This document shows, one piece after another, positions 5,325-23,365 of a stretch of 64,000 nucleotides of DNA. The position numbers were made by a program, and so were the translations under genes. Below the pieces are notes generated by a model, which made no database searches, was not told the origin of the DNA, and saw only the letters and a list, made by a program, of their open reading frames with translations. Source of the DNA: Gammaproteobacteria bacterium. GTDB taxonomy: Bacteria > Pseudomonadota > Gammaproteobacteria > QZLD01. The DNA is taken from positions 7,830 to 71,829 of the forward strand of contig JAWSVA010000004.1 of the NCBI GenBank assembly GCA_033852155.1, read 5' to 3'. Positions within the stretch are counted from its first letter, which is position 1; the number at the start of each line of letters is the position of its first letter.

Positions 5325-6535
5325 TATATTATTTTCCTTTGTGCAGTTTTCCCCTTCTCTTTTTCCAATACGCTTGAATAGAGATTGTCATATTTTGCTA
5401 CCATTGCAGCAAAACTAAAATTCTGTTGTATTCGCTCAATTGCATTCTTACCATGCTGCTGGCGTAACTGATCATCTTCTACATATTTATTCATTGCATC
5501 AGCCATCCACTTAGAATCAGAAGCCGGCACTATATATCCTGTTTTGCCATCATCAACTAGCTCGCGGTTACCACCAACATCAGTTGCAATTACTGGCAGT
5601 CCAGTAGCCATAGACTCTAATATAGTATTTGATATACCTTCAGCTAATGATGGTAAAACAAAAATATCTAGCTTATGTAAAATTGCTGGCACGTCATCTC
5701 TAGCCCCTGGCATCCAAACTAAATCTTGAATTGCGTTATCTTCAATAAGTTTTTCTGCAGGTGCAAACAAATTGCCATTCCCCACAAGAACCAAACGCAC
5801 TTTTTCTCTATGCTGCGGATGATTCTCAATAAAATGAACAAAGGCTCTGACCAATAGAAGGGTGTCCTTCACTTCCTCCATTCTGCCAACTGTTCCTATA
5901 ACAATTTTATCATCAAACTCTGCAGGATAACCTGCTACATTTGTTGTAACAGAAGGACTGAACCTTTCCGTGTCTACACCATTACATATACGCACAACTT
6001 TTTTAGAACTAATACCGACATCCTTAATCAACCAATTTTCTAAATCCATCGATAGAGCTGCGAAGCGATCAATAACTGGCGATAATAAACGACGTAAAAG
6101 CCGGTATTTTTTATTTGAGCCATCTATATCAATAGTATCTCTGCCATGCTCACTATGAATAATATATGGCACACCGGCTAAAAAGGCTGGCATTACAGCA
6201 TCCAGTGCTGGCAGGTTTCTGGTGTGTACAACCTTTGGCTTTAACTTTTTTAACATCCGATAAAGCTTAATGTAAATTTTTATATCTTTACCTGGGTGCT
6301 TATGCAGAGATATATATTCAACCTCACGGTTGGTTATACGATCTTTAAAGTGGGTGATCTCAGTGAGTGAAATCACAATATGACGATACTTATCCTGTGG
6401 CAGATTATTCAAAAGATTTACCACGCCGTTTTCCAACCCACCTACGTCGAGCCGAAAAAGCACGTGCGCAATTATTGGCCTGCTATCCACAATTTTTTTA
6501 TTTGCTATTATGCTTCCTGCACTACTACTATCCAT
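5324..6535 (-). CDS. GT4-family glycosyltransferase. This is a sugar transferase of the PEP-CTERM/EpsH1-associated type.
   Basis: 403 aa with a C-terminal PSLAEGISNTILESMATGLPVIATDVGG GT-B motif. Its start overlaps the xrtA stop. Confidence 0.75.
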   Translation of the reverse strand: MDSSSAGSIIANKKIVDSRPIIAHVLFRLDVGGLENGVVNLLNNLPQDKYRHIVISLTEITHFKDRITNREVEYISLHKHPGKDIKIYIKLYRMLKKLKPKVVHTRNLPALDAVMPAFLAGVPYIIHSEHGRDTIDIDGSNKKYRLLRRLLSPVIDRFAALSMDLENWLIKDVGISSKKVVRICNGVDTERFSPSVTTNVAGYPAEFDDKIVIGTVGRMEEVKDTLLLVRAFVHFIENHPQHREKVRLVLVGNGNLFAPAEKLIEDNAIQDLVWMPGARDDVPAILHKLDIFVLPSLAEGISNTILESMATGLPVIATDVGGNRELVDDGKTGYIVPASDSKWMADAMNKYVEDDQLRQQHGKNAIERIQQNFSFAAMVAKYDNLYSSVLEKEKGKTAQRKII

Positions 6536-8136: not shown

Positions 8137-8190
8137 GCTAGGCTGTTACGCTATCCATTTTGTAAAACTGTATTATCTATACTCATAGAC

Positions 8191-9387
8191 TTAACCTTCT
8201 AGTAGGTCCACAACTTTGGCAACGTTACTTTGCCAGTTATAATTTTTCAAGATCATCTCGCGCCCTTTATCACCCCAAGACTTAGCTTGTGCATCATCTT
8301 GTAATAGTTCAGCTACTTTGTCTGCGTAGGTTTGAGCATCATCTATAGTTAGCTCAGAAAACTGTTCAATATCTTTAATCCCTTCCATAGCCTGGCTAGT
8401 TGCAACAACTGCTTTGCCCATCGACATAGCCTCCAGCACTTTATTTTGTACTCCGCGAGCAATTCGAAGTGGAGCAACAGATAGGTTAGAGTATTGAATA
8501 TAAGGGCGAACATCCTCCACTCTTCCAGTAACAGTTACTCCGGCAATATTACTTAAGGCATTTACTTTCGCAGTTGGCTTTGACCCAACGATAAAAAACT
8601 CCAAACCGGATATTTTTTGCTGTACTAACGGAAGAACTTCTTCAGCAAACCAAACAACAGCATCAACATTAGCCCAATAATCCATGGCCCCTGTAAATAC
8701 AATTTTAGGCGCTGCATTTACATATAGATTTCCTACATCAGAATTTGCAGTAAAAAATTCATAATCGACACCGTTATCAATGCTATGTACCTTCTCTGCC
8801 ACAGCTGGAACAAGCTCACGAAACAAAGCGCTCTCTTTTTCTGACACAAACAGGCTGTGATCGGCCTGCTGCGCAACCATCTTTTCCCATTCAAATAATT
8901 TTTTATATTCACGTTTATACAACCAACTGGCAGGCCATTTTTTGCGGCTACTATATTGGCGCCACTTGTCCGAATCAATATCAACAAAATCAACGACCAT
9001 TTTCAGATCAAAGCGGGTTGATGAAACAAATTGAGCCATTGCAGATGAGAAAACCAGAGTTTTATTGACCCCTTTTGCAATAACTTGCTCTACATAATCG
9101 GATAGCTCTTTACTTTGGTAGTATGGAATAGATAACGCATCTGCGGTAAGAAAACCTTTTAAGGATTTAATCTTGCTTACAAATGGATCAATCTCTATCG
9201 CACAAAAAGACTCGCACAAAGATGCAACATGCTCTTTATATTGCAGATCTTCTTTATCATCTATGAAGGTCGCTAAGTGAATCTTGTACTCTTTTCGCAA
9301 CTCATTTAAGAGATGATAAGACCTAATCTTATCTCCTTTATTTGGCGGATATGGAATACGGTGCGCAAGAAACAGCAACTCTTTCAT
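8191..9387 (-). CDS. Glycosyltransferase (GT-B fold) of the type associated with PEP-CTERM/exosortase systems.
   Basis: 398 aa. Position and fold-level motifs only; family recognition is weak. Confidence 0.6.
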   Translation of the reverse strand: MKELLFLAHRIPYPPNKGDKIRSYHLLNELRKEYKIHLATFIDDKEDLQYKEHVASLCESFCAIEIDPFVSKIKSLKGFLTADALSIPYYQSKELSDYVEQVIAKGVNKTLVFSSAMAQFVSSTRFDLKMVVDFVDIDSDKWRQYSSRKKWPASWLYKREYKKLFEWEKMVAQQADHSLFVSEKESALFRELVPAVAEKVHSIDNGVDYEFFTANSDVGNLYVNAAPKIVFTGAMDYWANVDAVVWFAEEVLPLVQQKISGLEFFIVGSKPTAKVNALSNIAGVTVTGRVEDVRPYIQYSNLSVAPLRIARGVQNKVLEAMSMGKAVVATSQAMEGIKDIEQFSELTIDDAQTYADKVAELLQDDAQAKSWGDKGREMILKNYNWQSNVAKVVDLLEG

Positions 9388-9420
9388 TTGACTACCCCTA
9401 ATAATATTTAAGGTTTAGGA

Positions 9421-10473
9421 TTATCCAAGATTTTTAGAGATCATTGGGCCAATAACGCGACAAAGACCAAGAGGCAACTTCTTCCAAGTATCGATAAAAA
9501 ATTTATACTTTGGATTATTAGGGTTAATCTCTGGCATCTTATCTGCTTTTACCAAATAGTATTGATACGGAAGCGGTTCTGGTACAAATCCCCAGTTCTT
9601 TTTAAAACTATAGGCCCCAGTTCCCTCTTTACTACGGCCAAAATCAAAAATTCTACACCCTTTTTCTGCTGCGCGACGCATCACTTCCCAATACATAAAA
9701 TCATTGCCTGCAAGTGATCGAGCAGAATCTTTACCACCGCCGTAATAAGGCAATACTGCATCACGAAAATAAAAATTCATAACACTGGCAACCACTTCAC
9801 CTTCATGGGTAATAGTTACTATTTCACACTTATCTTTAAATACATCTTTAAGAATCTGGAAATATTTTTTCGCAAAGACTGGAGTTCCCAATCTCCAAAC
9901 ACTAAAGGAATACGCATCAAAAAAACGTTCAATATCTTCGTCAATCTCACTTTGTAAGCCAGCTTTAATACCCTTACGCACCATCGCCCTTTGCTTGCGA
10001 GGGATAGCTGACATATTCTCATCGTCATCAGAGCTTATCTCTTTACTAAAGGTTACATACAGCTCTTTAGTTGGCCATTCTGGATTATTTATTTTCCGTT
10101 CACGCAGTTCAAGACTATCTACCTTTAGCTGATCCGCCAGTTTACAAGCCTGCTGTTCCAGTAATTCCCTTACATCATCAGAATCTGCTATTGCCCCACC
10201 ATATACAGTAAAAGGCATACTCACTAAATTATTACCAAATAACATACTCTTTACATGGCCGAGAGGAAGCACACCTACTATCTTGCCACTAGATTCTCCA
10301 TCCGCAACAGATTCGGCATAATACATATAAGTCTTATGACCAAAGGCCTTTTCAATAACTGCTTGCCACTCCGCTAAATGGAAAAAAGTGCCATCAGCAT
10401 TATTAGTGACGTATTGATTCCAATCCGCATATTTATCTTTAGTAAGTAGTTTTATCGCTAATGCTTCGTTCAT
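9421..10473 (-). CDS. FemAB-family (GNAT-fold) protein of the type associated with XrtA/PEP-CTERM systems.
   Basis: 350 aa cytoplasmic protein. It is the expected size and occupies the locus position of the exosortase-associated FemAB-like proteins. Recognition is by context and general composition and is moderate. Confidence 0.55.
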   Translation of the reverse strand: MNEALAIKLLTKDKYADWNQYVTNNADGTFFHLAEWQAVIEKAFGHKTYMYYAESVADGESSGKIVGVLPLGHVKSMLFGNNLVSMPFTVYGGAIADSDDVRELLEQQACKLADQLKVDSLELRERKINNPEWPTKELYVTFSKEISSDDDENMSAIPRKQRAMVRKGIKAGLQSEIDEDIERFFDAYSFSVWRLGTPVFAKKYFQILKDVFKDKCEIVTITHEGEVVASVMNFYFRDAVLPYYGGGKDSARSLAGNDFMYWEVMRRAAEKGCRIFDFGRSKEGTGAYSFKKNWGFVPEPLPYQYYLVKADKMPEINPNNPKYKFFIDTWKKLPLGLCRVIGPMISKNLG

Positions 10474-10485
10474 TCTAATCCTAAT

Positions 10486-11343
10486 TTATTTATTAAGGTC
10501 TACGCGCGGCTTATCTTCTGGCTGTAAGAAAATATTATCCATCCGGTCCCAATCAAAATCCTGTAACAATCTACCTAATCTTTTTTCCATTCGACTAAGA
10601 TTAGTATAGTGCCTAAACTTAGTCTTAAAGTTAGTTCCTTCTTGTCTTGGCTGCTCAGGGTCTATCTCCCACGGATGAAAATAGAAAACAGACGCCTGTT
10701 TATCAACTTTATTTACTTTATTTATTGCGCGCTTAGACCAAAAATATGGCAACAAGCGAAAATAACCTCCGCCACCACAAGGAAAATTATTCCCCAACAC
10801 CTTAGTTGTAGTTACTGGAACTTCGATAAGATCCAGATCATTTGGTAAAAATGCAAAGCGTGGTGCATCAGGCATCCCATAAAGATCGTGGTGAATCGGA
10901 TATATACTTGAGCTATATTTATGCCCAGTTTCCTGCAATATATCTAATGCCCACAAATTCTTTGTTCCAATGGAGTAGCTCGGAGCCCTATAACCTTTTA
11001 TCTCTGTACCAGATAAATCCTCCAACAGCTTTTTGGTCTTTATAATATCTTCTCTAAATTCATCTTTAGTCATCTTGATGATACGAACATGATCCCAACC
11101 ATGACTAGCAAGCTCATGCCCCTGCTCAACAATTCTTTTAATTAACTGAGGATATCTATGGGCCACCCAACCAAGTACGAAAAATGTTGCTTTAACACCA
11201 TGCTGTGAAAATAGCTGCAGCGCTTTATCGGTATTTTGCTCTACACGACATGGTAATCTCTCCCAATCAGATCGATCGATTACATTTTCAAAGGCTGAAA
11301 CCTGAAAATAATCTTCTATATCAATGGTCATAGCATTTTTCAT
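10486..11343 (-). CDS. Polysaccharide deacetylase (NodB family) of the XrtA-locus type.
   Basis: 285 aa. MTIDIEDYFQ at the N-terminus and the HGWDH motif match the NodB/CE4 catalytic motifs. Confidence 0.7.
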   Translation of the reverse strand: MKNAMTIDIEDYFQVSAFENVIDRSDWERLPCRVEQNTDKALQLFSQHGVKATFFVLGWVAHRYPQLIKRIVEQGHELASHGWDHVRIIKMTKDEFREDIIKTKKLLEDLSGTEIKGYRAPSYSIGTKNLWALDILQETGHKYSSSIYPIHHDLYGMPDAPRFAFLPNDLDLIEVPVTTTKVLGNNFPCGGGGYFRLLPYFWSKRAINKVNKVDKQASVFYFHPWEIDPEQPRQEGTNFKTKFRHYTNLSRMEKRLGRLLQDFDWDRMDNIFLQPEDKPRVDLNK

Positions 11344-11397
11344 GATTTCAGCTTCGCTTGATTTATGTACAAAGTTATAAATACTTTTAAAAAAAGA

Positions 11398-12534
11398 TTA
11401 AGACAATTGCTCTAACCACTGCGATAGGTGTGCAGCAATACGTTTAGCAGTATTTCCATCCCAATATTCTGGAATACGCCCTGCCTTTCCTTTTCCTTCC
11501 ATCACCTGGTCAAAAGTTTTAAGTATCAGCTCACGATCTGTACCAACAATTGTATTGGTACCATCGGTAGCGGTAATAGGTCTTTCAGTGGATTCTCGCA
11601 GAGTTACACAAGGTACACCAAGAGCCGTTGTCTCCTCCTGAATCCCTCCAGAATCAGTCAATACAACCTTTGCCCCTTGCATCAATCCCAGCATATCTAG
11701 ATATCCAGCTGGAGGTATTCGCAGGATAGAATCAGTCTGTAATAACCCCTCTAACCCAAATATCTCAATTTTTGATGCTGTACGCGGATGAACTGGAAAT
11801 ACGATAGGGATGCGTTTACTGATTGTATTCATTGTTTCCAATAAACCACGTAAAGTAGCCTCATCATCCACATTAGATGGGCGATGCAGGGTTAAAATCG
11901 CATAACTTCCATTTTCCCCTGTGAATTTTTCCCCTCCACCGTTGTTTGCAAATATTTGCTGCGCTGGAGTTGCCTGTTCTAAGTTATTACGCAAGGTATC
12001 AATCATCACATTACCAACGAACTGCACTTTCTTGCCAGCAATCCCCTCTTGAGCTAGGTTATCTGCTGCTTCACGCTCAGTGGTATAAAGTAAGTCAGAT
12101 AGTTGATCTGTAAGTATTCTATTAATCTCTTCCGGCATAGTGCGATCGCGACTACGCAATCCTGCCTCAACATGAATAACAGGAATATTTTTTTTCGCAG
12201 CGACTAAACCACAAGCAACAGTTGAATTAACATCCCCGACAACTAACACTGCTGCAGGATTATGTTTATCAACTTCGGGCTCAAATCTTTTCATTATATC
12301 TGCAGTTTGTACTGCATGAGAGCCTGAACCAACACCAAGATCAACATCAGGTTTTGGAATTCCAAGTTGATCAAAAAATGTTTTTTTCATCGCCTCATCA
12401 TAGTGCTGTCCTGTATGTACCAAAACAGCGTTTATTTGACTATTTTCTCTATTAAATTCAGCCATTAATGGAGCTATTTTCATAAAATTTGGTCTAGCTC
12501 CAACCACACACATAACTGTTTTATTTTTTTCCAC
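11398..12534 (-). CDS. wecB: UDP-N-acetylglucosamine 2-epimerase (non-hydrolysing)
   Basis: 378 aa with the characteristic MKIAPL...HTGQHYD...RPNFMK and HVEAGLRS motifs. Confidence 0.85.
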   Translation of the reverse strand: MEKNKTVMCVVGARPNFMKIAPLMAEFNRENSQINAVLVHTGQHYDEAMKKTFFDQLGIPKPDVDLGVGSGSHAVQTADIMKRFEPEVDKHNPAAVLVVGDVNSTVACGLVAAKKNIPVIHVEAGLRSRDRTMPEEINRILTDQLSDLLYTTEREAADNLAQEGIAGKKVQFVGNVMIDTLRNNLEQATPAQQIFANNGGGEKFTGENGSYAILTLHRPSNVDDEATLRGLLETMNTISKRIPIVFPVHPRTASKIEIFGLEGLLQTDSILRIPPAGYLDMLGLMQGAKVVLTDSGGIQEETTALGVPCVTLRESTERPITATDGTNTIVGTDRELILKTFDQVMEGKGKAGRIPEYWDGNTAKRIAAHLSQWLEQLS

Positions 12535-12590
12535 GTCGTCCTTCCCAGGAATTAACTCATGCTATTTAAATTTTGGGGGTGGCAGATTAA

Positions 12591-13694
12591 TTAATTACCG
12601 CCATCTTGGTTAGAGCCAAACTGTTTGCGAATATTTCCAAATAAGATTTCATGAAGATATTCAATTTTCATCTCCAGTTTATTAACTTTTTTCTCTAATC
12701 CTTCTATCTTTTCTTCAGCCCCTTCAAGTGCTGCTGAAGTTATGGCCTTATATTCATCGTAATTTCTTTGCGGTGTACCAGGCTTGGTCTTTTTACTTGA
12801 TTCAGATGATTCCGCAATACACTTATCAAAAAACCGCTCCGAAATATCTACATCATCTTTTTGTGACTCATGAGTTATAGCAAGCATTTCCCCTTTTAGC
12901 TCATTAACAACTCTTATCGTTACATCGCTATTAAAGTGATCAAGCTCTTCAATCGCACCAAGCAATAGCAGCCTATTACACAATCTATTAATTTTACGAG
13001 GGATACCGCCAGAGTTTTCAAAAATTGACCTTAAAGCATCATCAGCAAACTCTGGCCTACTCTTCCAGCCAGATTTAATTAAACGATAAAGAATATAGTC
13101 CTTTGTCTCTTCTGAACTTAATGGTTCTAGATGGCAAGAAGCTATTATTCTTTGCCGAAACTGCTCCATAGATTCATGCCCAAGCAAATACTGTAGTTCA
13201 ATCTGCCCCAATAAAAAGCACTGTAATACTGGCTTACCTTTATAACTTATATTAGAAAGCATACGCAGCTCTTCTAAACCTGATAACGACAAATTCTGAG
13301 CTTCGTCAATTACAAGCAATACTCTCTTTCCATCTTTAGAAACCTTAAACAGATACTCTTCAAGCTTGCCAATTGCTTGAGGTTTTGTCAGCCCTTTACT
13401 ATCAATTTTCAAGGCTGAGCAAACCATATATGGGATATCATCCCCATCTAACTGAGTTGTAACAATTCTTGAAGCTATAACTGGACCAAACTCTAATACT
13501 GAAAACAACCTTTCAACCAAGGTTGTTTTACCAGTACCAATATCGCCAGTAATAACAATAAAACCTTCACCTTGCTTTAATCCATATTGGAGATAAGCGA
13601 ACCCTTGCTTATGTACCTTGCTACCAAAAAACAGGTCCATATTTGGAGTTAGTTGAAAAGGGTTGCCTTTAAATCCGTAAAAATCTTCGTACAT
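12591..13694 (-). CDS. AAA-type ATPase (ExeA-like) of the XrtA/PEP-CTERM-associated type.
   Basis: 367 aa. The Walker A motif is GDIGTGKTT and Walker B is LLVIDEAQNL. There is a C-terminal coiled-coil tail. Confidence 0.65.
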   Translation of the reverse strand: MYEDFYGFKGNPFQLTPNMDLFFGSKVHKQGFAYLQYGLKQGEGFIVITGDIGTGKTTLVERLFSVLEFGPVIASRIVTTQLDGDDIPYMVCSALKIDSKGLTKPQAIGKLEEYLFKVSKDGKRVLLVIDEAQNLSLSGLEELRMLSNISYKGKPVLQCFLLGQIELQYLLGHESMEQFRQRIIASCHLEPLSSEETKDYILYRLIKSGWKSRPEFADDALRSIFENSGGIPRKINRLCNRLLLLGAIEELDHFNSDVTIRVVNELKGEMLAITHESQKDDVDISERFFDKCIAESSESSKKTKPGTPQRNYDEYKAITSAALEGAEEKIEGLEKKVNKLEMKIEYLHEILFGNIRKQFGSNQDGGN

Positions 13695-13739
13695 ATTTGT
13701 TCCGCAAGCAATAGTCTGAATGCTTTATGATTAATACAA

Positions 13740-15182
13740 TTAATATTTCAGCTCAGCCCCAACAGTAAATTTTGCCTGTTTATATTCAAAAGCGGCTTCT
13801 GTGCCATCACGAATTCCTGCTTGAACAGCAGTATACCAGATTGCTTTTTTACTCATGTTTCTAGTGTATTTCAATGAGTAAGTGCTCATATCATCTAATC
13901 TATCATTTAAATCATCTCCAAGCCTCCACCATCTTAGGTTAGCTCTGATATTTGATTTACTTGATAGGGTATAATCCCACTGAATATCTGCCCCAATAAA
14001 AATCTCATTCTGCCCTAAATTTCTATAAATTCGATCTTCGTATTTCAAGGTTAAATCGATACTGTTTTTTACACCCTCAACATTCCAGGTGAGACGTGTT
14101 TTTTTCTGTACATAGACATCACTTTCTCCACGATAAAACTTATATAAACGTTCATCAACAAGCTGATCTGTAATATCCTGAGTTACTCGATTTACCTGCT
14201 GTTCGCTATAACTTAGGCTTAATGCAGTTTTATTATTTTCATAGCTGAAACTTGCAAGATATGTGTCACCATAAAGGTCTTCCCCACCACCAAACTCAAG
14301 CTTTGTTCTAGTTGATAGCGAGTAAGCAATTTTTGCATCCCAAACATTACCTTCAAACCAGGAATAATTGGTAGATGAGCTAAGCCGCTCCCATTTCTTC
14401 CCAAGCATAATATAAAATATAGCTCTATTAAAAATAGGGTAACTAGATACCAAATCTACTTGTCTATATTCTGAAGCATTAAAGCCTTCAGTTTGTATAT
14501 ATTCGAAGCTGGAATTAATATTCCAATTAAACAATGCTGATCTAGATGCTGTGCCAAATGATACAATCGCATCATGCTCTTCAACATCATCGATTCCTCG
14601 ATCATAATATATTTTTCCGTGCGACGATGAATAACTAACGCCTAAATCACCAGATATCGGCAGTACAAACCTAGGCTTAATCTGCCCAGTATATTTATTA
14701 GCGCTGTTGGCGCCATAGATCAATCCATCAAATGATATTGCATCTTCAGCATCTATTACTTCACTTTCATGTGAGACATAAAAATCAGTAAAAAACCTAT
14801 CCCTGATTAACTCAACCCCAAGATCACCTCTTAGCAGATGTTGCATGTCATTCATACCGCTATTTTTGGCGTACATATACCCCGAAGCTCTATAATCCAT
14901 ATAGGCATTAACTCTACGGCCTTGGCTCTTAAGGTTCACAAAAGGCGAAACTAATAGATAGCTATCTGATTCACGTTGCGCAGCCCCAATATCAACATTA
15001 TCTGTAAAAACATATTCTGAGGTAACCCCAGCATTAAGCTCCAACTTTTTTGCATATATGGTTGTTGAAAATAAAAGCAGTAAAACCACAACTGATTTAT
15101 TAACGAATACAAATGGGTTTTTAATTAAATAAACCACGGCATTCCCTCGTCTATTTATATTGTCTTCTATATGATGAACCAT
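13740..15182 (-). CDS. Putative outer-membrane beta-barrel protein of the PEP-CTERM-system-associated type.
   Basis: 480 aa. A hydrophobic signal-like segment VVVLLLLFSTTIYA lies near the N-terminus. The composition is rich in alternating aromatic residues and ends in a terminal ...AELKY (aromatic C-terminus). The annotated start overlaps the upstream gene by 32 nt, so the true start may be further downstream. Confidence 0.5.
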   Translation of the reverse strand: MVHHIEDNINRRGNAVVYLIKNPFVFVNKSVVVLLLLFSTTIYAKKLELNAGVTSEYVFTDNVDIGAAQRESDSYLLVSPFVNLKSQGRRVNAYMDYRASGYMYAKNSGMNDMQHLLRGDLGVELIRDRFFTDFYVSHESEVIDAEDAISFDGLIYGANSANKYTGQIKPRFVLPISGDLGVSYSSSHGKIYYDRGIDDVEEHDAIVSFGTASRSALFNWNINSSFEYIQTEGFNASEYRQVDLVSSYPIFNRAIFYIMLGKKWERLSSSTNYSWFEGNVWDAKIAYSLSTRTKLEFGGGEDLYGDTYLASFSYENNKTALSLSYSEQQVNRVTQDITDQLVDERLYKFYRGESDVYVQKKTRLTWNVEGVKNSIDLTLKYEDRIYRNLGQNEIFIGADIQWDYTLSSKSNIRANLRWWRLGDDLNDRLDDMSTYSLKYTRNMSKKAIWYTAVQAGIRDGTEAAFEYKQAKFTVGAELKY

Positions 15183-16134
15183 AGTAAGGATTTGAATTTC
15201 TTGTCCTTGATTTATTTAAAACAAGATTAACAATATCGTTATCATCCAGTATATCAACTGCTTTTTTTACATTTTCATGAGAGGTTGAGTAAGACTCAAC
15301 AACCAATACAACCTGCCCAACAATGTCAGCTAAAACCTTTGCTTCACTTGTAATAAGAAGAGGAGGTGAATCCAGAATAACAGCACGATCATTATATCTT
15401 TGTGAAATCTCATCTATAAGCGATAGCATTGCGCTACTTGCAAGAATTTCAGTTGCTTTTTCATGCCCGCTTCCTGCTGGTAGTATTACTAGGTTTTCAA
15501 TATTAGTTTTAACCAATACGTCGGTCATTTTAATAGTGTCATCAACCAATAAATCAATTAGCCCCGGTAAATCAGGGTCCAAACCAAGATATTCACTTAT
15601 CGATGGTTTAGGAATATCTGCATCGATAAGCAAAACCGTTGTATCCATCTCTGTAGCCATGCTCATAGCCAAGTTAATTGATGTAAAAGTTTTCCCTTCA
15701 CCAGGTAAGGCACTAGTTACCATTATAATATTAGAGTTATCGAACTCTTTAGATGCTGCCCCAAATGCATTATTTAGAATAGGCCTTTTAATAATTCTAA
15801 ACTCTTCAACTAAAGAATTATCATCTCTACTTGAAGTGATAATATTTTTGCTTTCAAGCTTACGCAAATCAATTTTCTGAGGTTTTGCGCTAGTTATGAT
15901 ATTTGATTCGCTTTCAGCCGCAATCTGACTTTGTCTATTAGCCGAATTAGAGTTATCTTTATTTTTGGAAGCTTTTCCCGGCTCATTCCAAAATTCAGCT
16001 GGATTTAACTCATCATTATATTCTTCTTCAATACGTTTACGATAATCTTGCTGATCTTTTTGTTCATCTACACTTGAACTTTCAGCTGAACCACTCTTTT
16101 TTAGTTTGTTAAATGCATTTTCTATAGTGCTCAT
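15151..16134 (-). CDS. BY-kinase ATPase subunit. This is the Wzc C-terminal-like tyrosine autokinase (EpsG type).
   Basis: 327 aa. It has Walker A ALPGEGKTFTSINLA, Walker A' VLLIDADIPKPS and Walker B VILDSPP. The C-terminal tail is Tyr-rich: PYYGSSYRRQYK. Confidence 0.7.
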   Translation of the reverse strand: MSTIENAFNKLKKSGSAESSSVDEQKDQQDYRKRIEEEYNDELNPAEFWNEPGKASKNKDNSNSANRQSQIAAESESNIITSAKPQKIDLRKLESKNIITSSRDDNSLVEEFRIIKRPILNNAFGAASKEFDNSNIIMVTSALPGEGKTFTSINLAMSMATEMDTTVLLIDADIPKPSISEYLGLDPDLPGLIDLLVDDTIKMTDVLVKTNIENLVILPAGSGHEKATEILASSAMLSLIDEISQRYNDRAVILDSPPLLITSEAKVLADIVGQVVLVVESYSTSHENVKKAVDILDDNDIVNLVLNKSRTRNSNPYYGSSYRRQYK

Positions 16135-16135
16135 A

Positions 16136-17752
16136 TTAACCTACCAATTGAGTCAGCTTAGCGGCCAGATCTATTCCAGCATAGTGGATAAAAACAATAG
16201 TTATAAAAAAACAAAAATATATTACAAATCCAAGAGAAAACGTCATTATCTCAAACTTACGTTTTATTTTTCTTCTGCTATCGACTACTAAAGATACAGC
16301 TCCTAAAATAGGTCTATCGGCTATTTTCTCTAACGTCTTTTGACTATCAACTATTGGTTTTATCTGCCCTAAAAAGAAAGCAAAGAAAATACCACAAGCA
16401 AGTGAAGCCAGCATAACCACAGCTGAAAAAATAATTCTCGGGGGACCAGATGGATTAAATCCAACATATGGAGGATCAACAACATCAAAGTTAACGTTAT
16501 CAGTTCTTTGCTCCACATTTTGCGATATTAATGCAGACTCTTTTCGATCGACTAAAGCCTCATAATTTTTCTTATGTATACTATAATCTCTATTCAAGCT
16601 TTTTAATTCTGCTTCTACAGCTGGTATGATATCAATCTTAGCTTTTAACTTCTCTACCCTGTCCTGATATTCCACCAGCCTTGCTTTTGATACCGCTAAA
16701 TCAGCTTCCGTATTTCCATAGGATATCAATAGTTCCTGATAGATCGGGTTGGTATTAAGCATATCAAGAGGATTAGCATTTATTTTTGCAACCACATCTT
16801 GCTCAATTTTTTCCATGTCTGCTGCACGCTTCGATTCCAACTGAGAAAGCATTGCTTGAGCTTGAACTACATCTGGATGCTCATCAGTAAACCGTAGTTT
16901 AAGATTTCTTAAAGTATCCTTGTATTCTTCAATATCACTATCTAAATCGTGTTCAAAATCTTTACTTAATTTTTCACCTGAGCTTCTTTCAGAAACTTTT
17001 TTAGCTTCCTCAATGGCGTCTTTTTTCTGCTTATCTATAAGCTTTTGTAATCTCTTGCGCTTATTTTTCAACTCTGTATTTACAAGTCTATGCTTTTCCA
17101 GGTCATCTAAAGCACGCTGCATTCTGACATAATAGCCACCGCTATCACCAGGCATCTCACCAACATGTTCTCTTTTAAACTCTTTTAAACTGTTTTCAGC
17201 CTCTTCAAGTTTTTCTTTGTATTCATCAATTTGCTGATCAAGAAATGCTTGAGCAACATCAGTATCCTTTCTATTAGCACCCAGAGTGCTCTCAATAAAA
17301 ACTGTTAATATTGAGCTTACTACTTTTTTAGCTACCACTGGATCTTCATGAACATAGATAATTTTGTATTGGTCTTTTTGCAGATATCGACCAATTTTAA
17401 TTTTTTTCTCTAGTTGCTTAAGCAGTTTCTCTTCATCTTCTTCAGAGCTAACCTCAATATCTAAATCCGCCATCCTCGCAATTTGCTGTAGCTTAGGACG
17501 GGTAAATAGACGGATTTTTATCTGGCGCACTCTTTCTGAAAGATTAGTTGTTACTACAAGCCTGCCTAAAAGTGGTTTTAGAATTGATTCAGTATCAGCA
17601 TAAACAGTCGCAGTTGCTTCATACTGATCAGGAAGCTGTGCTACGACCCCCCAGCCTAAAACACCAACAAACCATGCGACAGCCAACATTACCCAGCGAA
17701 AACGCCAGACACTTCTTAGATATGTGAATAACTTATCTATAAATTCAAGCAT
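16136..17752 (-). CDS. Polysaccharide chain-length determinant (Wzz/Wzc N-terminal-like) of the PEP-CTERM locus subfamily (EpsF type).
   Basis: 538 aa. There is an N-terminal TM segment, a long coiled-coil periplasmic region and a C-terminal TM segment. It sits immediately upstream of the split kinase subunit. Confidence 0.7.
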   Translation of the reverse strand: MLEFIDKLFTYLRSVWRFRWVMLAVAWFVGVLGWGVVAQLPDQYEATATVYADTESILKPLLGRLVVTTNLSERVRQIKIRLFTRPKLQQIARMADLDIEVSSEEDEEKLLKQLEKKIKIGRYLQKDQYKIIYVHEDPVVAKKVVSSILTVFIESTLGANRKDTDVAQAFLDQQIDEYKEKLEEAENSLKEFKREHVGEMPGDSGGYYVRMQRALDDLEKHRLVNTELKNKRKRLQKLIDKQKKDAIEEAKKVSERSSGEKLSKDFEHDLDSDIEEYKDTLRNLKLRFTDEHPDVVQAQAMLSQLESKRAADMEKIEQDVVAKINANPLDMLNTNPIYQELLISYGNTEADLAVSKARLVEYQDRVEKLKAKIDIIPAVEAELKSLNRDYSIHKKNYEALVDRKESALISQNVEQRTDNVNFDVVDPPYVGFNPSGPPRIIFSAVVMLASLACGIFFAFFLGQIKPIVDSQKTLEKIADRPILGAVSLVVDSRRKIKRKFEIMTFSLGFVIYFCFFITIVFIHYAGIDLAAKLTQLVG

Positions 17753-17780
17753 TATTTATATACGCTCTCGTTAGAGTATT

Positions 17781-18404
17781 CTAAAACCATGACTCAGGAA
17801 TTATAATTGTATCACCAGGCATCATAGGAACATTTGCTGATATATCACCATCTTTTATCAAATCACCCAGGCGCACTCTATATTGTTTTGAAACTCCATT
17901 TTCTTTTCTAATAATAGAAGCCATATTTCCTGATGCATTGACCGTTAATCCACCAACTGAGATCACAATATCGAGTACTGTCATACCTGACCTGTAAGGA
18001 ATTGCTATGGGCCTTCCTGCCTCACCTATAACGCGAACTAACTGTCCATATTCACCCGCAAACACTTTAACTAATACAGTTACTTGAGGATTCCGAATAT
18101 ACTTTTTAAGTAGTTTTTCAATTTCACGCGCTAAAGCTGAAGGAGTTTTACCCGCTGCAACAAGGTCTTCAATTAATGGGGTGTTTATTTTTCCATCAGG
18201 TCTTACAGGAATTTCAACAGAGAGATCAGCATTCCTCCATACGAATATATCTAGTCCATCTCCTGGACCAATAAGATAATCAATAGATTTACTCTTACCA
18301 ATTGACGTTGGAGCTTCCGGATAACTTGCCACACACCCAGTAATAGCACCAAAAAAAACCAGATAAGCAACTAATTTTGCTATAAAAAATTTCATCATTA
18401 CCAC
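17781..18404 (-). CDS. Polysaccharide export protein (Wza/EpsE-like lipoprotein)
   Basis: 207 aa. The signal peptide carries a lipobox-like ITGC. The PGDGLDIFVW and DGDISANVPMMPGDTIIIP motifs are typical of the Wza/soluble-ligand-binding beta-grasp family. Confidence 0.7.
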   Translation of the reverse strand: MVMMKFFIAKLVAYLVFFGAITGCVASYPEAPTSIGKSKSIDYLIGPGDGLDIFVWRNADLSVEIPVRPDGKINTPLIEDLVAAGKTPSALAREIEKLLKKYIRNPQVTVLVKVFAGEYGQLVRVIGEAGRPIAIPYRSGMTVLDIVISVGGLTVNASGNMASIIRKENGVSKQYRVRLGDLIKDGDISANVPMMPGDTIIIPESWF

Positions 18405-18538
18405 CTACTATACGATAAATGAACAAAAAGAGATTATTTAGCCTACAACATTAACAATAAAAAAGTTACGGACAACATTCCATGATTCTGCCGCACTTAA
18501 TAGAATAAGAATAATTTAGAAATCTACTTTTAGCAATT

Positions 18539-18566
18539 AAAAAAGGCTGCATAAGCAGCCTTTTTA
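18539..18566. terminator. Rho-independent, apparently bidirectional terminator immediately after the PEP-CTERM gene.
   Basis: The hairpin aaggctgc-ataa-gcagcctt is flanked by an A-run (18539-18544) and a T-run (18561-18565). Confidence 0.6.
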
Positions 18567-18585
18567 TTTCAAAGCAGTTAAAGAT

Positions 18586-19344
18586 TTACTTTCTTTTTCT
18601 ACTTACAAATCCAAATGCAGCTAATCCAAGACCAAAAATGGCTAATAAAGCTGGCTCAGGAATAGCTTCAACAGACTCAACCATAACTACAAAGTCAGTA
18701 TAGTCTTTATCTGATGTTGCTAGAGGCATATCTTCCCATGCAAGAATATACTCATCTGCTGTCCAAGTTCCTTTATCAGCTCCTGGCAATTCAATCTCAT
18801 CACCCTGCCCCTGATACGCAACCATGTGATCATCACCTTTCACATCACCATCAGCTGATTCATTTAAAATTGCTTGTGAATAATAAATCTCACCGCTACC
18901 TGAGTTCAGATAATAACCAAAACGATCGCGCTCAAACAAACCAGCCTTATATCCAACAAAAGCATTCTCATCATCTAAAGTTACAACAGAAACCACTCCA
19001 GCTGCATTGATAGATAGCGTAGATTTATAGCCAGCCACATGATCGCCAGCAAATAACTCAATTGAATTAAGTGGGTTTGAATAATCATATACACCAAATG
19101 AGTTTATATTTTCATACCCAGCAAGCTCAATTACCAAAGTAGCAAAAGACCCTCCAGATGCGGTTAACGACCAAAGCTCGTCATTTCTCATCTGGTCAGT
19201 ATGAACGTTTACAGAAGAATCTCCGACAACAGTGATATCATTTAAAACACCTTGCAGGGCATTGCCCTTAACAACAGTAGCTGAAGCAGTGCTCGCTAGC
19301 ACAAGCAAAGTTGTTGCAATTAGTGACGTCAAAAGTTTTTTCAT
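18586..19344 (-). CDS. PEP-CTERM sorting-domain protein. This is the exosortase substrate.
   Basis: 252 aa. It has a signal peptide MKKLLTSLIATTLLVLASTASA. The C-terminus IPEPALLAIFGLGLAAFGFVSRKRK gives the PEP motif, a hydrophobic TM helix and a basic tail. This is the canonical tripartite PEP-CTERM signal. Confidence 0.85.
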   Translation of the reverse strand: MKKLLTSLIATTLLVLASTASATVVKGNALQGVLNDITVVGDSSVNVHTDQMRNDELWSLTASGGSFATLVIELAGYENINSFGVYDYSNPLNSIELFAGDHVAGYKSTLSINAAGVVSVVTLDDENAFVGYKAGLFERDRFGYYLNSGSGEIYYSQAILNESADGDVKGDDHMVAYQGQGDEIELPGADKGTWTADEYILAWEDMPLATSDKDYTDFVVMVESVEAIPEPALLAIFGLGLAAFGFVSRKRK

Positions 19345-19393
19345 TTTATCTACCTTTGTATTGTATGGTAAAACAATTAATTTGAAATCTATT

Positions 19394-19411
19394 TAGCAAC
19401 AACCATACCAA
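19394..19411 (-). promoter_or_regulatory. Candidate sigma-54 (-24/-12) promoter for the PEP-CTERM gene.
   Basis: The minus strand reads TGGTATG-gttg-TTGCT, against the consensus TGGCACG-N4-TTGCW, with exact spacing. It is located about 50 nt upstream of the ATG. Confidence 0.45.
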
Positions 19412-19513
19412 CATTAAAATATTCTTATTTATCAAAATAATAATCAAGCATTGCATATTTCACAAAGCACTCAATGTAAAATATGCTGACACAATTTAAA
19501 AACTATTTTTACG

Positions 19514-22258
19514 TCACTCCCCAATCATCTCCAATAACTCTATGGCCTCTTGCCTAATTTTTGTATTGAATGATTTACCATTTATTGAATCTTTTAATAC
19601 GTCTCGCGCAGTGATCTCATCGCCATTTGCAATTAGTGCCTGCGCATAATGCAACGCAATCTCCTGATCCCCTTTTCTTTTTCTATGCGCCACAACCAAC
19701 TTATCCAATGCTTCTTTAACTTTTCCAGCCTTAAGCAATATAACCCCATATGTATCAATTATCTCTGGTTGATTCTGAGCTAACAAATATGCTTTTTGCG
19801 CATATTCTAAAGCCAATTGAAAATCGTCCTCAATTGATATGAATGCTAAATTATTCAGTGCCAATATATGATTAGGAGCATCTTGCAATATATTTTTAAA
19901 TTCAATTTTAGCTTTTTCAACCATACCTGACTGCAACAAGGAATCTGCTAATATATACCTAACTGCAATATCTCTTGGATTATTCTCCAACCACTTTTGC
20001 AGTACATCAATTCCTTTTCCAGCCTCTTTTATAGTGTAATAAGCCTTTGCTAACTGAACTGCTGCCTTGGGTGATTTGCTTATTGATAAAGCTTGCTCAT
20101 AATAACTTATTGCAGCTTCACTATCCCCTGTTGCAAACTTATACCTACCAAGTAAAACTAGTTTATCTGCATTATTTCCAACCTTTCCAATATCTGCAAT
20201 GAGCTTACCAGCTTTTTTGATTTCACCTTCAGTAATATATATATGGGCTAAACTCAGCTTCGATGGAATATGATTTGGGTTTTCCCTTAAAGCCTTTTTA
20301 ATGTTCAATTTGGCCCTTCGAGAATCCCCCACCCTTTCATAAACCTTTGCCAATAAATAGTACGCTATTGGTGAATTAGGTTGAGCCCCTATCATCTTTC
20401 CATAAGCTGACACGGCACTTGCTGGCGCATTCATAGCAAGATATATATCACCTAAAAACTTTAAAGCAAAAACATTATCAAGATTTAATTGTGGTGGCTT
20501 TCGAAGCACTTCTAAGGCACTAAATGGATCTCTGGATTGTATAAAAAAATTAGCCAAAGCTAATCTTGCCTCTAGCGACTCTGGATAGATTTTAACCCAT
20601 GTTTGCAGATATCCCATCGCGCTATCAAGCCTGCCAGACTTTGCTGCCAAATTCGCAATCTGAGGCAAAATAAGAGGGTGATTTGAAAACTTTTCAAGAC
20701 AATTTAAAAAGACTTTTTCAGCCTCTTGCACCTTATTTTGCTTAACCAACATCTTACCTAGGTGCAGGGTTGCCAGAGGATCCGCTATTCTGTTTTGTAA
20801 CGCGATCAAAAACGATCTCTCTGCCTCTTCATATTTATTGTTTTTTACAAACACCATCCCATTTAAAGTATGAGGTAAGGCGCTTTCAGGAAGTGCATTA
20901 GCAAACTTTGCAGCTTCATCACTGGCTTCTGATAATTTTTCTACCCTGATATAAGCCAATATTAATAATATCTGCGTCTGAATATTTTCTGGATATTCGC
21001 CAATTATAGACTCAAGGGTAGCTTGTTCCGAAACTGCGCCAATAAAATTAGATTGGCCATCAAGATCCCATTGAAGCATAAATGCTTTTTGCAATATTGG
21101 AACAGCATCATTTATCTCACCAAGCCCCATAAGTATTTTGCCATATATAAGTACAACAGAAGGGTCTTCAGGTAACTTCTCAATAACTGGTTTTATTACC
21201 AGTTTTGCTTGCTCTAACTTATTTGCTTTTACCAAAACCTTAGTTAAAATTTTTCTGGCATGATAATTATCTGGATTCTTGACTATAACTTTATTTAGAT
21301 TCTTTTCTGCCTGCTCTAGATTCCCAAGTTCAAAATACACCCCGCCTAAAAAAAGCCAGGTCTCTATTGAGTCTGGAGCAGATTTTAATGAACTTTCAAA
21401 AAAATCTTTTGCATCGATGAAGTTTCCTTTGCGCATTGACAAAAGGCCCTTAGCAAAAAAATACGTGGGGTGATCAAGGATCTTATTTTTAATTTGGGCT
21501 AAATCTAATTCAGCTTTTTCGAGCTCATTTATTCTAATTCTAAGTAAGGCGCGATGCATATAGGCTGTTAATGACAACCCCTCATTATTATCAATTACAA
21601 CCGAATATGATTTTTCAGCTTCTTCATATATTTTTAACCTGCTTTCAACTCTACCTTTTAATAACCAGGCACTATAGTGCTCTGGATATTTAACTACAGT
21701 TTCCTCAAGAAGTTTCTGTGCTGTTTTATAATTCCCCTGATAAACACTGTATTTGATTTGGACCATTTGAATTGAAAGATTTTCAGCATCTAACCCAATA
21801 CCCATTTCAATATAAGTATAGGCCTTACCCCCTTCACCTAGTCCCATATGTGCTTCAGCCATTGCAGCATAAACATTTGCTCTTAGCTTTGTGCTGAAGC
21901 TTTCACTTATCTCTATCTCGTCAATAACCTTTCTATACTCACCCTGTTTTAGAAGGGTCTGCATTAAGGCTGGATAAATTGCTTTTTTGTCAACACCAAG
22001 CTGCAAAGCAGCCTTTAATTCTTTTTCCGAGCTTTCCCACTTAGCAAGATCATTGTATATAAGACCTAATAACCACCTGGCTTCTGCATTTTTAGAGTTA
22101 AACTTCAGCGCATTTTTTAATTCAATTACGCTTGATTCAAGATCTCCCTGCTGTTGAAACCCTTTTGCCTTTCTAATATATTCGATATCAGACAGCTGTT
22201 TTTCCCCACATGATGTTAACAAAATGATTGCCAACATTATTGATGCAATTATTTTCAT
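19514..22258 (-). CDS. prsT: PEP-CTERM-system TPR-repeat lipoprotein (PrsT type)
   Basis: 914 aa. The lipoprotein signal is MKIIASIMLAIILLTSCGE. The protein is almost entirely TPR repeats. It lies adjacent to the PEP-CTERM gene. Confidence 0.75.
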   Translation of the reverse strand: MKIIASIMLAIILLTSCGEKQLSDIEYIRKAKGFQQQGDLESSVIELKNALKFNSKNAEARWLLGLIYNDLAKWESSEKELKAALQLGVDKKAIYPALMQTLLKQGEYRKVIDEIEISESFSTKLRANVYAAMAEAHMGLGEGGKAYTYIEMGIGLDAENLSIQMVQIKYSVYQGNYKTAQKLLEETVVKYPEHYSAWLLKGRVESRLKIYEEAEKSYSVVIDNNEGLSLTAYMHRALLRIRINELEKAELDLAQIKNKILDHPTYFFAKGLLSMRKGNFIDAKDFFESSLKSAPDSIETWLFLGGVYFELGNLEQAEKNLNKVIVKNPDNYHARKILTKVLVKANKLEQAKLVIKPVIEKLPEDPSVVLIYGKILMGLGEINDAVPILQKAFMLQWDLDGQSNFIGAVSEQATLESIIGEYPENIQTQILLILAYIRVEKLSEASDEAAKFANALPESALPHTLNGMVFVKNNKYEEAERSFLIALQNRIADPLATLHLGKMLVKQNKVQEAEKVFLNCLEKFSNHPLILPQIANLAAKSGRLDSAMGYLQTWVKIYPESLEARLALANFFIQSRDPFSALEVLRKPPQLNLDNVFALKFLGDIYLAMNAPASAVSAYGKMIGAQPNSPIAYYLLAKVYERVGDSRRAKLNIKKALRENPNHIPSKLSLAHIYITEGEIKKAGKLIADIGKVGNNADKLVLLGRYKFATGDSEAAISYYEQALSISKSPKAAVQLAKAYYTIKEAGKGIDVLQKWLENNPRDIAVRYILADSLLQSGMVEKAKIEFKNILQDAPNHILALNNLAFISIEDDFQLALEYAQKAYLLAQNQPEIIDTYGVILLKAGKVKEALDKLVVAHRKRKGDQEIALHYAQALIANGDEITARDVLKDSINGKSFNTKIRQEAIELLEMIGE

Positions 22259-22365
22259 GCACTACTTTCCAAGGTTTTATTAATTAATTTAAAAGGTCTG
22301 CCGACCAAACCTATAAAAGAATTTGTTTATGCATACAACATTTTCACTTTAATAAGGCTAAGTAT

Positions 22366-23175
22366 TTATTCAACAACAAAAGTAACTGAAGCAACCTCGC
22401 TCCCGCCCTTGCTATCAAACATCCTTAAATCATACTTACCTTTATATAAATATACCGTAAATACCATAATCCCATTTATTCGGCTATCTATCGTATACTT
22501 TTCCAAATCATGTTTATCATTTAGTTTTTCATCATCGTGCGGTACTGATGAACGTATCAAACCAATCCAAGCATTCTTTCTAAACCATTTTGGAGCTGAA
22601 AACTTAACCTTTATCGCTTCGCCAGTTTTATATTTTTTCTTATTTAGCTCTAGACTACCGCTTGATTCTTTAACCATAAAAGAAACATAAACAACTTCTT
22701 TTCCCATTTCGCTGTCATGCATTCTTATATCATATTTACCATATTTTAATGGTGCCGGAAAAAGCATTGTGCCTTTAGTTTTCCTATCCAAGTATTGATA
22801 AGTTAGCGCATGTAGATCATTTTCTTCTGCCTTACCATGCTTAATATTTGAAGGTATAATTCCTAACCAAGCATTTTCTCCATATCTTTTTGATGCTCTA
22901 AATGAAACTTTAATCTTTTCTCCTGGAGCATAAAGAGTCTTATTAATATATATTTTTGGTTTGAAAGTTTTTTTACTACTATTGCTATTGTTTTGTGCGT
23001 TACTTCTTATTATTTTATCCTGCTCTCTATCCTCAATTTCTTTATTTTGTTGCGTAACAAATTCAGGAGCGCTTCTAGCTGAAGCTGGCCGTCCCACTTC
23101 AGCGTTTACATTCCTCATAGACCCTAATAGCCCAACAGCTATAGTAAACGAGAGTATTAATCCAAAAAACCTCAT
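22366..23175 (-). CDS. Secreted protein of unknown function made of two tandem ~90 aa repeat domains.
   Basis: 269 aa with the signal peptide MRFFGLILSFTIAVGLLGSMRNVNA. It carries an internal duplication with the pattern GE-IKV-F-A-K...NAW(L/I)G(I/L)I...KGKYD(I/L)RM-DS...V-F-V-E. It is the first gene of the EPS gene string. Confidence 0.6.
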   Translation of the reverse strand: MRFFGLILSFTIAVGLLGSMRNVNAEVGRPASARSAPEFVTQQNKEIEDREQDKIIRSNAQNNSNSSKKTFKPKIYINKTLYAPGEKIKVSFRASKRYGENAWLGIIPSNIKHGKAEENDLHALTYQYLDRKTKGTMLFPAPLKYGKYDIRMHDSEMGKEVVYVSFMVKESSGSLELNKKKYKTGEAIKVKFSAPKWFRKNAWIGLIRSSVPHDDEKLNDKHDLEKYTIDSRINGIMVFTVYLYKGKYDLRMFDSKGGSEVASVTFVVE

Positions 23176-23365
23176 GTTTTGCCCTATTCATTTTTATGAT
23201 TCTTACCATCAAGATATGCGAAATCATATGTTTTTACAAAGATCTACCACACATATTTATAACTTTATTCTAGAATATGACACAAAAACCACCAATCAAC
23301 AGCCAGAATGCTCATAAAATACTCAGACTAAGCTTTAATAACCAACGATTGGTGGTAGGTTTTAA

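Follow-up and report, generated by a model that had tools for sequence, protein, structure and literature searches.

Sigma-54 promoters of the NifA/NtrC type carry, about 100 nt ahead of the -24/-12 element, an upstream activator site (UAS) with the sequence TGT-N10-ACA, and their activators act at a distance on the closed sigma-54 complex. For the PEP-CTERM genes, an architecture with a motif 1 and a sigma-54 motif 2 was predicted by Haft et al. in 2006 (BMC Biol 4:29, PMC1569441). Motif 1 is 17 nt long, ends in TTTACA and is the predicted PrsR site; the spacer between motif 1 and motif 2 is 62.8 +/- 10.6 nt (range 32-92), and the element lies 23-221 nt from the start codon. In the same work, this box had exactly the phylogenetic profile of PrsK, PrsR and PrsT in 13/13 proteobacterial genomes. 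Genetic data came later from two organisms. In Zoogloea resiniphila MMB, the PEP-CTERM genes need RpoN and PrsK-PrsR, and polysaccharide synthesis does not (PMC9012009). In Aquincola tertiaricarbonis RN12, expression of pepA requires RpoN1 and begins at a mapped start site that follows TGGCAC/CTGCTT; prsT shows no such dependence (PMC9850573). Both organisms make polysaccharide without a need for PrsK/PrsR or RpoN (PMC9012009, PMC9850573).

The locus described here belongs to an uncultured, low-GC gammaproteobacterium and was analysed within a 64-kb stretch of DNA, hereafter the window. It holds a cargo gene placed inside an XrtA locus, between prsT and an export gene, all co-directional. As judged from sequence, this gene is very probably a single-gene transcription unit activated by PrsR and sigma-54, and insulated from the polysaccharide genes of the locus. 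The arrangement is real but ordinary: its description for genes of this class dates from 2006, and experiments in other bacteria have since confirmed it. Its features are collected in Table 1.

Table 1. Features of the cargo transcription unit and its surroundings (positions in the window).
Feature	Position	Strand	Details
prsT, XrtA/PEP-CTERM system TPR lipoprotein	19514..22258	-	TIGR02917, 565 bits (cut-off 312); immediately upstream of the cargo gene
Upstream activator site, PEP-CTERM box / motif 1	19491..19475	-	TGTCAGCATATTTTACA; predicted PrsR site
Predicted sigma-54 (-24/-12) core promoter	19410..19395	-	TGGTATGGTTGTTGCT; GG 19409-19408, GC 19397-19396
Predicted transcription start	19382..19385	-	~12 nt past the -12 C, from standard sigma-54 geometry
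Cargo gene, DUF4114/PEP-CTERM	18586..19344	-	ORF of 252 aa, ATG at 19344, stop TAA
Intrinsic terminator	18565..18539	-	A5-GGCUGC-UUAU-GCAGCC-U6; 11-bp hairpin and U-run, from fold and conservation
Candidate sigma-70 promoter, downstream export/biosynthesis operon	18508..18536	-	-35 TTGCTA, 17-nt spacer, -10 TATTCT
Exosortase A, XrtA-EpsI fusion	6535..8136	-	TIGR03109, 329 bits (cut-off 208); TIGR02914 EpsI domain

What kind of protein does this unit encode? In Pfam, it scores 27.7 bits for DUF4114 (cut-off 27) and 24.2 bits for PEP-CTERM (PF07589, cut-off 20.7). Its N-terminal sequence looks like a Sec signal peptide, MKKLLTSLIATTLLVLASTASA, and its C-terminal end is a PEP-CTERM sorting signal, IPEPALLAIFGLGLAAFGFVSRKRK; by a tail scan of the six-frame translation, it is the sole PEP-CTERM ORF within the 64-kb window. 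What an exosortase A cargo requires is present here, namely the signal peptide, the PEP-CTERM tail and XrtA within the window. The PepA family model NF033554 matches the C-terminal tail alone, with 27.2 bits and a cut-off of 80 that is not reached, and on its sequence the protein is a member of the DUF4114 family, not of the PepA family. Its homologues number 392.

At the predicted core promoter, the minus strand reads TGGTATG-GTTG-TTGCT, with exact -24/-12 spacing. The element is intergenic, its end lies 50 nt upstream of the cargo ATG, and it agrees with TGGCACG-N4-TTGCW at 10/12 positions, the -24 half-site being degenerate (TGGTAT instead of TGGCAC). How much weight can such a match bear? 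The bare pattern TGG-N9-TGCW has 27 matches in the window vs 20.7 +/- 4.4 expected, which is not beyond chance and thus uninformative. When scored with a general, approximate sigma-54 matrix, the site tops ~128,000 positions with 15.7 bits (runner-up 13.9). A family matrix, for which 57 sites were taken from family members in other genomes, places it just sixth in the window (10.4 bits), the cause being two T residues where TGGCAC is nearly invariant. The top match of the family matrix, at 13809..13788, was discarded: it covers the last codons of an outer-membrane protein gene and resembles coding conservation (GAT GGC ACA). Transcription would start at ~19384 (19383 in the preliminary description), giving a predicted 5' UTR of ~40 nt with the ribosome-binding site AAAGG 9-13 nt ahead of the ATG; an Rfam search of 17500-23500 returned no known RNA element in this 5' UTR.

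The match is significant because of its context, that is, motif 1 64 nt upstream and conservation in orthologous loci. The sequence of motif 1, TGTCAGCATATTTTACA, fits TGTC-N7-TTTACA exactly, includes the partial dyad TGT-N11-ACA and is the best match on both strands of the window (14.8 bits, with a matrix for which 25 sites of other loci served as training set). The predicted start lies ~100 nt downstream of its centre. Inspection by eye of the DNA between enhancer and promoter gave no convincing IHF site, only one-mismatch matches to WATCAANNNNTTR in AT-rich DNA. In the wider family, motif 1 occurs 30-120 nt upstream of a sigma-54 element in 30/68 loci vs 10/1266 controls. Other clades of the cargo family have different upstream motifs, the Steroidobacteraceae loci being an example, and in several Desulfobacterota loci other enhancer-binding proteins adjoin the gene.

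Four syntenic loci are available for comparison, this window and the loci L001, L002 and L003, with cargo proteins 64-74% identical. In their intergenic alignment, motif 1 and the sigma-54 element are the sole conserved blocks, and the spacer between motif 1 and the sigma-54 16-mer is 63-64 nt in L001-L003. L001 has the same 16-mer as the window, TGGTATGGTTGTTGCT; the aligned sequences are TGGCACAGTAGTTGTA for L002 and TGGCACATTAGTTGTA for L003, and these last two have the canonical TGGCAC -24 box, column for column with the element here. The weakness is found on one side or the other: this locus and L001 have it in the -24 box (TGGTAT), and L002, L003 and the homologous locus L050 have it in the -12 box (TTGTA). 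In other genomes, 62/78 cargo homologues are preceded within 250 nt, on the sense strand, by a sigma-54 element scoring 13 bits or more; the controls give 0/78 for the antisense strand, 45/6820 (0.66%) for random segments and 20/890 (2.2%) for the DNA ahead of other ORFs. The preliminary description had proposed a sigma-54 promoter with GG, GC and exact spacing; the elements are read directly at 19410..19395, and both the alignment with TGGCAC in L002/L003 and the sense-strand enrichment over antisense uphold this reading. The activator site that it had suggested might lie within 19420-19513 is there, as motif 1 at the published spacing.

Could the sigma-54-like match be non-functional all the same, with cargo transcripts arising through prsT read-through or at an intergenic sigma-70 promoter? 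The chance-level count of the bare pattern, the degenerate -24 box and the sixth rank with the family matrix would suit this idea, and so would a sigma-70-like TTGTGA-17-TATTAT at 19465..19437 (9/12 positions) and the lack of a terminator between prsT and the cargo control region. However, the region has 12 sigma-70-like sites where shuffles give 11.1, and the one at 19465..19437 has no conserved counterpart in L001-L003, whereas the sigma-54 and motif 1 blocks are kept there. Family-wide sigma-54 enrichment and the exact spacing of motif 1 are hard to explain otherwise, so that a non-functional match appears highly improbable. Some basal expression of the cargo via read-through is possible because no terminator separates it from prsT.

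If the promoter depends on sigma-54, which protein activates it? Searches with NCBIfam on the plausible ORFs of the 64-kb window found no PrsK, PrsR or RpoN, and a six-frame scan of the same 64 kb found neither the GAFTGA signature of enhancer-binding proteins nor an RpoN box; Logan contigs of 4.7 and 6.0 kb, matched via the left-edge gene and the cargo, are also without these regulators. PrsT and the cis motif suggest that this genome encodes all three. Two homologous loci are instructive: prsK-prsR-prsT is immediately upstream of the cargo homologue in L063, and prsK-prsR in L050, with PrsR at 676 and 588 bits, respectively (cut-off 503), and the PEP-CTERM box follows immediately 3' of prsK-prsR in both. 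An NtrC-family protein other than PrsR might be the activator, given that PrsR is not in the window and that the Steroidobacteraceae and Desulfobacterota clades of the cargo family differ in the ways noted above. Such a substitution is very unlikely, though: the upstream site fits the PEP-CTERM box, whose profile is that of PrsK/PrsR/PrsT in 13/13 genomes (PMC1569441), PrsT is present here, and L063 and L050 carry the same box next to prsK-prsR. PrsR remains the probable activator.

On the other side of the gene, the terminator consists of AAAAAGGCUGC-UUAU-GCAGCCUUUUU plus one extra U, and begins 20 nt past the TAA. Its fold has an MFE of -17.3 kcal/mol (z = -3.6), and 0/200 shuffles are as stable. 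The hairpin is kept in 4/4 syntenic loci, with a compensatory C-G to U-A change in L003, and of the 80 family members, this window and 79 homologous loci, 58 have a terminator-like hairpin 3' of the stop codon, vs 5/347 controls. The null result of a terminator scan of 17500-20500 was set aside, since folding and conservation clearly show the hairpin; the scan probably overlooked it because the A/U extension consumes part of the U-run. In the Rfam search of 17500-23500, sub-threshold sRNA matches were confined to this hairpin. Just beyond it, the block holding the candidate sigma-70 promoter is conserved in 4/4 syntenic loci; the candidate has 8/12 consensus positions, and the promoter scan did not report it. 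An ops/JUMPstart element past the terminator was considered and dropped: GCGGCAG occurs in the window and is not conserved in L001-L003.

Is the insulation complete? The hairpin might be leaky as a terminator, or might serve to stabilise the 3' end, so that some sigma-54 transcripts enter the export and chain-length genes and couple the cargo to polysaccharide export. The genes are co-directional, the stem has only six G/C-rich core pairs, and termination can be weakened by the pairing of part of the U-run with the A-run. Leakage of this kind is nonetheless rather unlikely: the conserved hairpin shows a compensatory change, a promoter-like block beyond it is conserved in its own right, most family members with unrelated neighbours have terminators too, and in Zoogloea and Aquincola polysaccharide production proceeds independently of PrsK/PrsR and RpoN (PMC9012009, PMC9850573). 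The strong terminator that the preliminary description placed after the stop is retained, as a conserved 11-bp hairpin with a U-run, and its view that the cargo is controlled separately from the biosynthetic genes agrees with the published experiments (PMC9850573, PMC9012009).

Collectively, a course of events can be proposed. An NtrC-family enhancer-binding protein, most likely PrsR phosphorylated by PrsK, would bind the 17-nt box at 19491..19475 and, from ~100 nt upstream, would contact the closed complex of RNA polymerase and sigma-54 on 19410..19395. ATP hydrolysis by the activator would then open the promoter, with a start at ~19384. The resulting mRNA, predicted to be ~850 nt, would encode the Sec-exported DUF4114 protein and end at the terminator, and the downstream export/biosynthesis genes would use their own promoter, probably sigma-70 dependent, just beyond it. 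Once the cargo is exported, its PEP-CTERM tail is expected to be cleaved by XrtA, the exosortase A encoded 10 kb downstream.

The wider family raises a further point. Just 3/79 homologous loci have gene neighbours in common with the cargo here, yet most keep promoter and terminator, and so the cargo gene appears to travel with its own control elements. On sequence comparison, DUF4114 cargo genes across the family act as a monocistronic module driven by sigma-54. The PEP-CTERM box also occurs in non-proteobacterial MAGs, namely Fibrobacterota MAGs and a Nitrospinota MAG with prsK-prsR adjoining the gene, and the distances from enhancer to promoter group at 48-52, 62-65 and 74 nt, discrete classes separated by about one turn of the helix. 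Are box, sigma-54 promoter and terminator a portable cassette, moved with the DUF4114 cargo far beyond Proteobacteria and with its spacing in discrete classes? The idea is a tentative one, and on balance doubtful. If true, it would imply that the contact between PrsR and sigma-54 has a strict face-of-the-helix need, without a bending protein, and that the reciprocal weakening of the -24 or the -12 box is a means of tuning promoter strength.

These data leave the current understanding unchanged, with the architecture predicted in 2006 and confirmed genetically in Zoogloea and Aquincola. What they offer is a clean annotated case of an XrtA locus that separates the control of the sorted protein from that of polysaccharide synthesis, with exact coordinates for enhancer, promoter and terminator. 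The DUF4114 family module, the box in non-proteobacterial MAGs and the discrete spacing classes are a modest addition.

How close is this locus to the known systems? With NifA/NtrC-type promoters it shares a TGT...ACA dyad-like site ~100 nt from the predicted start; it differs from their UAS in the N11 spacing of the dyad and in the extended, T-rich right half, TTTTTTACA, and no convincing IHF site was seen between enhancer and promoter. The resemblance to the regions described by Haft et al. is closer: a PEP-CTERM gene forming a unit of its own, a 17-nt motif with TTTACA at its end, a 64-nt spacer, and a -24 GG and -12 GC at canonical spacing in non-coding DNA, 50 nt from the start codon, with PrsT encoded here too. 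Unlike those regions, this one has TGGTAT in place of TGGCAC as -24 box, an intergenic region of 169 nt rather than the typical 200 nt or more, a gene that lies within the XrtA locus and does not stand alone, and PrsK and PrsR not found in the 64-kb window. As for pepA of Aquincola and Zoogloea, the cargo here is of the DUF4114 and not the PepA family, and prsT, downstream of pepA in Aquincola, is upstream of the cargo; the common ground is a PEP-CTERM gene beside prsT, with a predicted sigma-54 promoter, an upstream enhancer and regulation apart from polysaccharide synthesis.

The locus at 663..22258 on the minus strand is a textbook XrtA/PEP-CTERM exopolysaccharide locus. Its genes, listed below, were assigned with NCBIfam models against curated cut-offs, and all score above them save the ATPase, which falls slightly below. 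Within the 64 kb, the cargo gene alone encodes a PEP-CTERM protein: its 252 aa begin with a readable Sec signal peptide and end in a PEP-CTERM tail, which, like the DUF4114 domain, exceeds its Pfam gathering score, and the cargo has 392 detectable homologues. At the edges of the locus, the 269-aa ORF preceding prsT matches no family beyond a weak MG2-domain hint (E = 0.007), and its position is kept in the three syntenic relatives (L001-L003; 55-77% identity). In locus L080 (2640..4155, beyond the window's left edge), a polysaccharide deacetylase and a ParE toxin/RHH antitoxin pair lie past the O-ligase-like gene.

Features of the XrtA locus and cargo control region, with genes numbered in transcription order
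Feature	Position	Strand	Family or detail
269-aa ORF	22366..23175	(-)	
1 prsT		(-)	TIGR02917, 565 bits
Motif 1	19491..19475		
Sigma-70-like site	19465..19437		rival promoter
Sigma-54 element	19410..19395	(-)	
2 cargo gene	18586..19344	(-)	DUF4114/PEP-CTERM
Hairpin	18565..18539		
Sigma-70-like promoter	18508..18536	(-)	-35 TTGCTA 18536..18531, 17-nt spacer, -10 TATTCT 18513..18508; predicted from conservation only
3 export protein		(-)	TIGR03027
4 chain-length determinant		(-)	TIGR03007
5 tyrosine autokinase		(-)	TIGR03018
6 outer-membrane protein		(-)	TIGR03016
Family-matrix top match	13788..13809	(-)	TGATGGCACAGAAGCCGCTTTT, 15.7 bits
7 ATPase		(-)	TIGR03015, 319.6 bits (cut-off 324.5)
8 wecB		(-)	
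9 deacetylase		(-)	TIGR03006
10 FemAB-like protein		(-)	TIGR03019
11 stp1		(-)	
12 XrtA-EpsI fusion		(-)	TIGR03109
13 stp2		(-)	
14 amidotransferase		(-)	TIGR03108
15 GT4 glycosyltransferase		(-)	
16 O-ligase-like protein		(-)	TIGR03097

How is the cargo gene controlled? The preliminary description, made from the sequence alone, proposed a sigma-54 promoter, and the observation is confirmed: TGGTATGGTTGTTGCT carries GG and GC at exact -24/-12 spacing and ends 50 nt upstream of the cargo ATG. Taken alone, such a match argues only weakly for a promoter: the window contains 27 copies of the minimal pattern where 20.7 are expected. An approximate general sigma-54 matrix ranks the site top in the window (15.7 bits); a family-derived matrix, trained on the 57 sites that precede homologues in other genomes, places it only sixth (10.4 bits), because two bases of the nearly invariant TGGCAC are T here. 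The top match of the latter matrix lies within the final codons of the outer-membrane protein gene, ~95 nt before the ATPase ATG; it is partly kept in L003, in a manner that looks like coding conservation.

The homologous loci, 79 in a scan of species-representative genomes, are more informative. A sigma-54 element of at least 13 bits lies on the sense strand, within 250 nt upstream, in 62 of the 78 with enough upstream sequence. The antisense strand of these regions has no such element (0/78), and the control rates are 45/6820 among other 250-nt segments and 20/890 upstream of other ORFs in these loci. Only L001-L003 repeat the window's succession of the unassigned 269-aa gene, prsT, the cargo gene and the export, chain-length and kinase genes, and in the four aligned intergenic regions the conserved blocks are motif 1 and the sigma-54 element. 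The window's TTGGTATGGTTGTTGC stands directly over TTGGCACAGTAGTTGT of L002, which makes the degenerate -24 box here orthologous to a canonical one. Transcription of the cargo gene from the sigma-70-like site would be an alternative, but that site is not conserved, and the sigma-54 element is the preferred promoter.

Motif 1 is the predicted enhancer described by Haft et al. (2006, PMC1569441), who found PEP-CTERM genes to be mostly single-gene operons, preceded in Proteobacteria by this 17-nt motif with TTTACA at its end and, further downstream, by a motif 2, also 17 nt long, that shows the -24/-12 pattern of sigma-54 and ends 71 ± 38 nt from the start codon; PrsR was proposed to bind motif 1. 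In the window, TGTCAGCATATTTTACA precedes the sigma-54 element by 64 nt, the published spacer being 62.8 ± 10.6 nt, and lies within the interval previously suggested for an upstream activating site. It is the top-scoring site of the entire window on both strands (14.8 bits) with a matrix built from 25 sites of other loci, the window and its closest relative being left out. Motif 1 occurs 30-120 nt upstream of the sigma-54 site in 30 of 68 loci (window included, sigma-54 site at a looser cut-off), compared with 10 of 1266 control windows. Immediately upstream of the cargo homologue and its box lie prsK-prsR-prsT in Marinobacter sp. F3R11 (L063) and prsK-prsR in a Nitrospinota MAG (L050), PrsR (TIGR02915) scoring 676 and 588 bits, respectively.

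The same loci offer by-products that are more novel. Haft et al. (2006, PMC1569441) found the motifs in Proteobacteria only; a motif-1-like box and a sigma-54 element also precede DUF4114/PEP-CTERM genes in Fibrobacterota MAGs (L006, L020, L024, L027, L028, L030) and in L050. Enhancer-promoter spacers among the 68 loci form discrete classes at 48-52, 62-65 and 74 nt, apart from one spacer each of 98 and 110 nt. A period of ~12 nt fits the spacers best, with relatedness as a confounder since the classes are largely clade-specific. Degeneracy of the promoter is reciprocal: L002, L003 and L050 pair a canonical TGGCAC with a non-canonical -12 TTGTA (GT for GC), and the window and L001 pair TGGTAT with a canonical TTGCT. 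All three by-products are confounded by locus relatedness. Steroidobacteraceae-type homologues (L010, L015, L023, L032-L036, L038, L039, L056) are without the TTTACA box and share GGCTCACATATTGGCACCGG and CCGACATAATCC, which precede an invariant TGGCACAAGCCTTGCT by ~65 and ~25 nt, respectively; these motifs may denote a different enhancer or activator.

The terminator proposed for the cargo gene is also borne out. The hairpin AAAAAGGCUGC-UUAU-GCAGCCUUUUU, with one further U, begins 20 nt past the stop and folds at -17.3 kcal/mol (z = -3.6; 0/200 shuffles as good); a simple terminator scan did not detect it. It is kept in the four syntenic loci with varying loops and, in L003, one compensatory change (GGCUGU...ACAGCC). 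Across the family, 58 of 80 members have a terminator-like hairpin within 150 nt of the stop, against 5 of 347 control windows. Most family genes have unrelated neighbours, so the gene, with its promoter and terminator, behaves as the self-contained module first suggested. Directly after the terminator, a second block conserved in the window and L001-L003 resembles a sigma-70 promoter and could drive the XrtA export and biosynthesis genes. From prsT to the cargo region there is no separating terminator, so some read-through is possible.

Collectively, the best-supported model is that PrsK would signal to PrsR, an NtrC-family protein, which would bind the box, ~100 nt ahead of the transcription start, and activate the closed complex that RNA polymerase-sigma-54 forms at the -24/-12 element; the transcript would begin near 19384 and end at 18540, and the DUF4114 protein would be exported and then processed by XrtA. 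Neither an enhancer-binding protein nor RpoN is encoded within the 64 kb, and a search past its edges yielded only short contigs, which carry no regulators. PrsR and RpoN may lie elsewhere in this genome, judging indirectly from the presence of PrsT and from the finding of Haft et al. (2006, PMC1569441) that it invariably accompanies PrsK, PrsR and the box.

The reading of a sigma-54-controlled cargo unit, regulated apart from biosynthesis, is supported, as a fresh instance of a known, experimentally validated architecture that is not itself new. In Aquincola tertiaricarbonis, pepA, a PEP-CTERM gene adjoining prsT, requires RpoN1, and its start site was mapped behind TGGCAC/CTGCTT with a predicted enhancer upstream, while prsT transcription was unaffected (PMC9850573). 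In Zoogloea resiniphila, according to the summary in PMC9012009, PEP-CTERM genes need RpoN and PrsK-PrsR, and polysaccharide synthesis and secretion are independent of them. The separation of cargo control from biosynthesis seen in these two bacteria is the one that the preliminary description inferred for the window.
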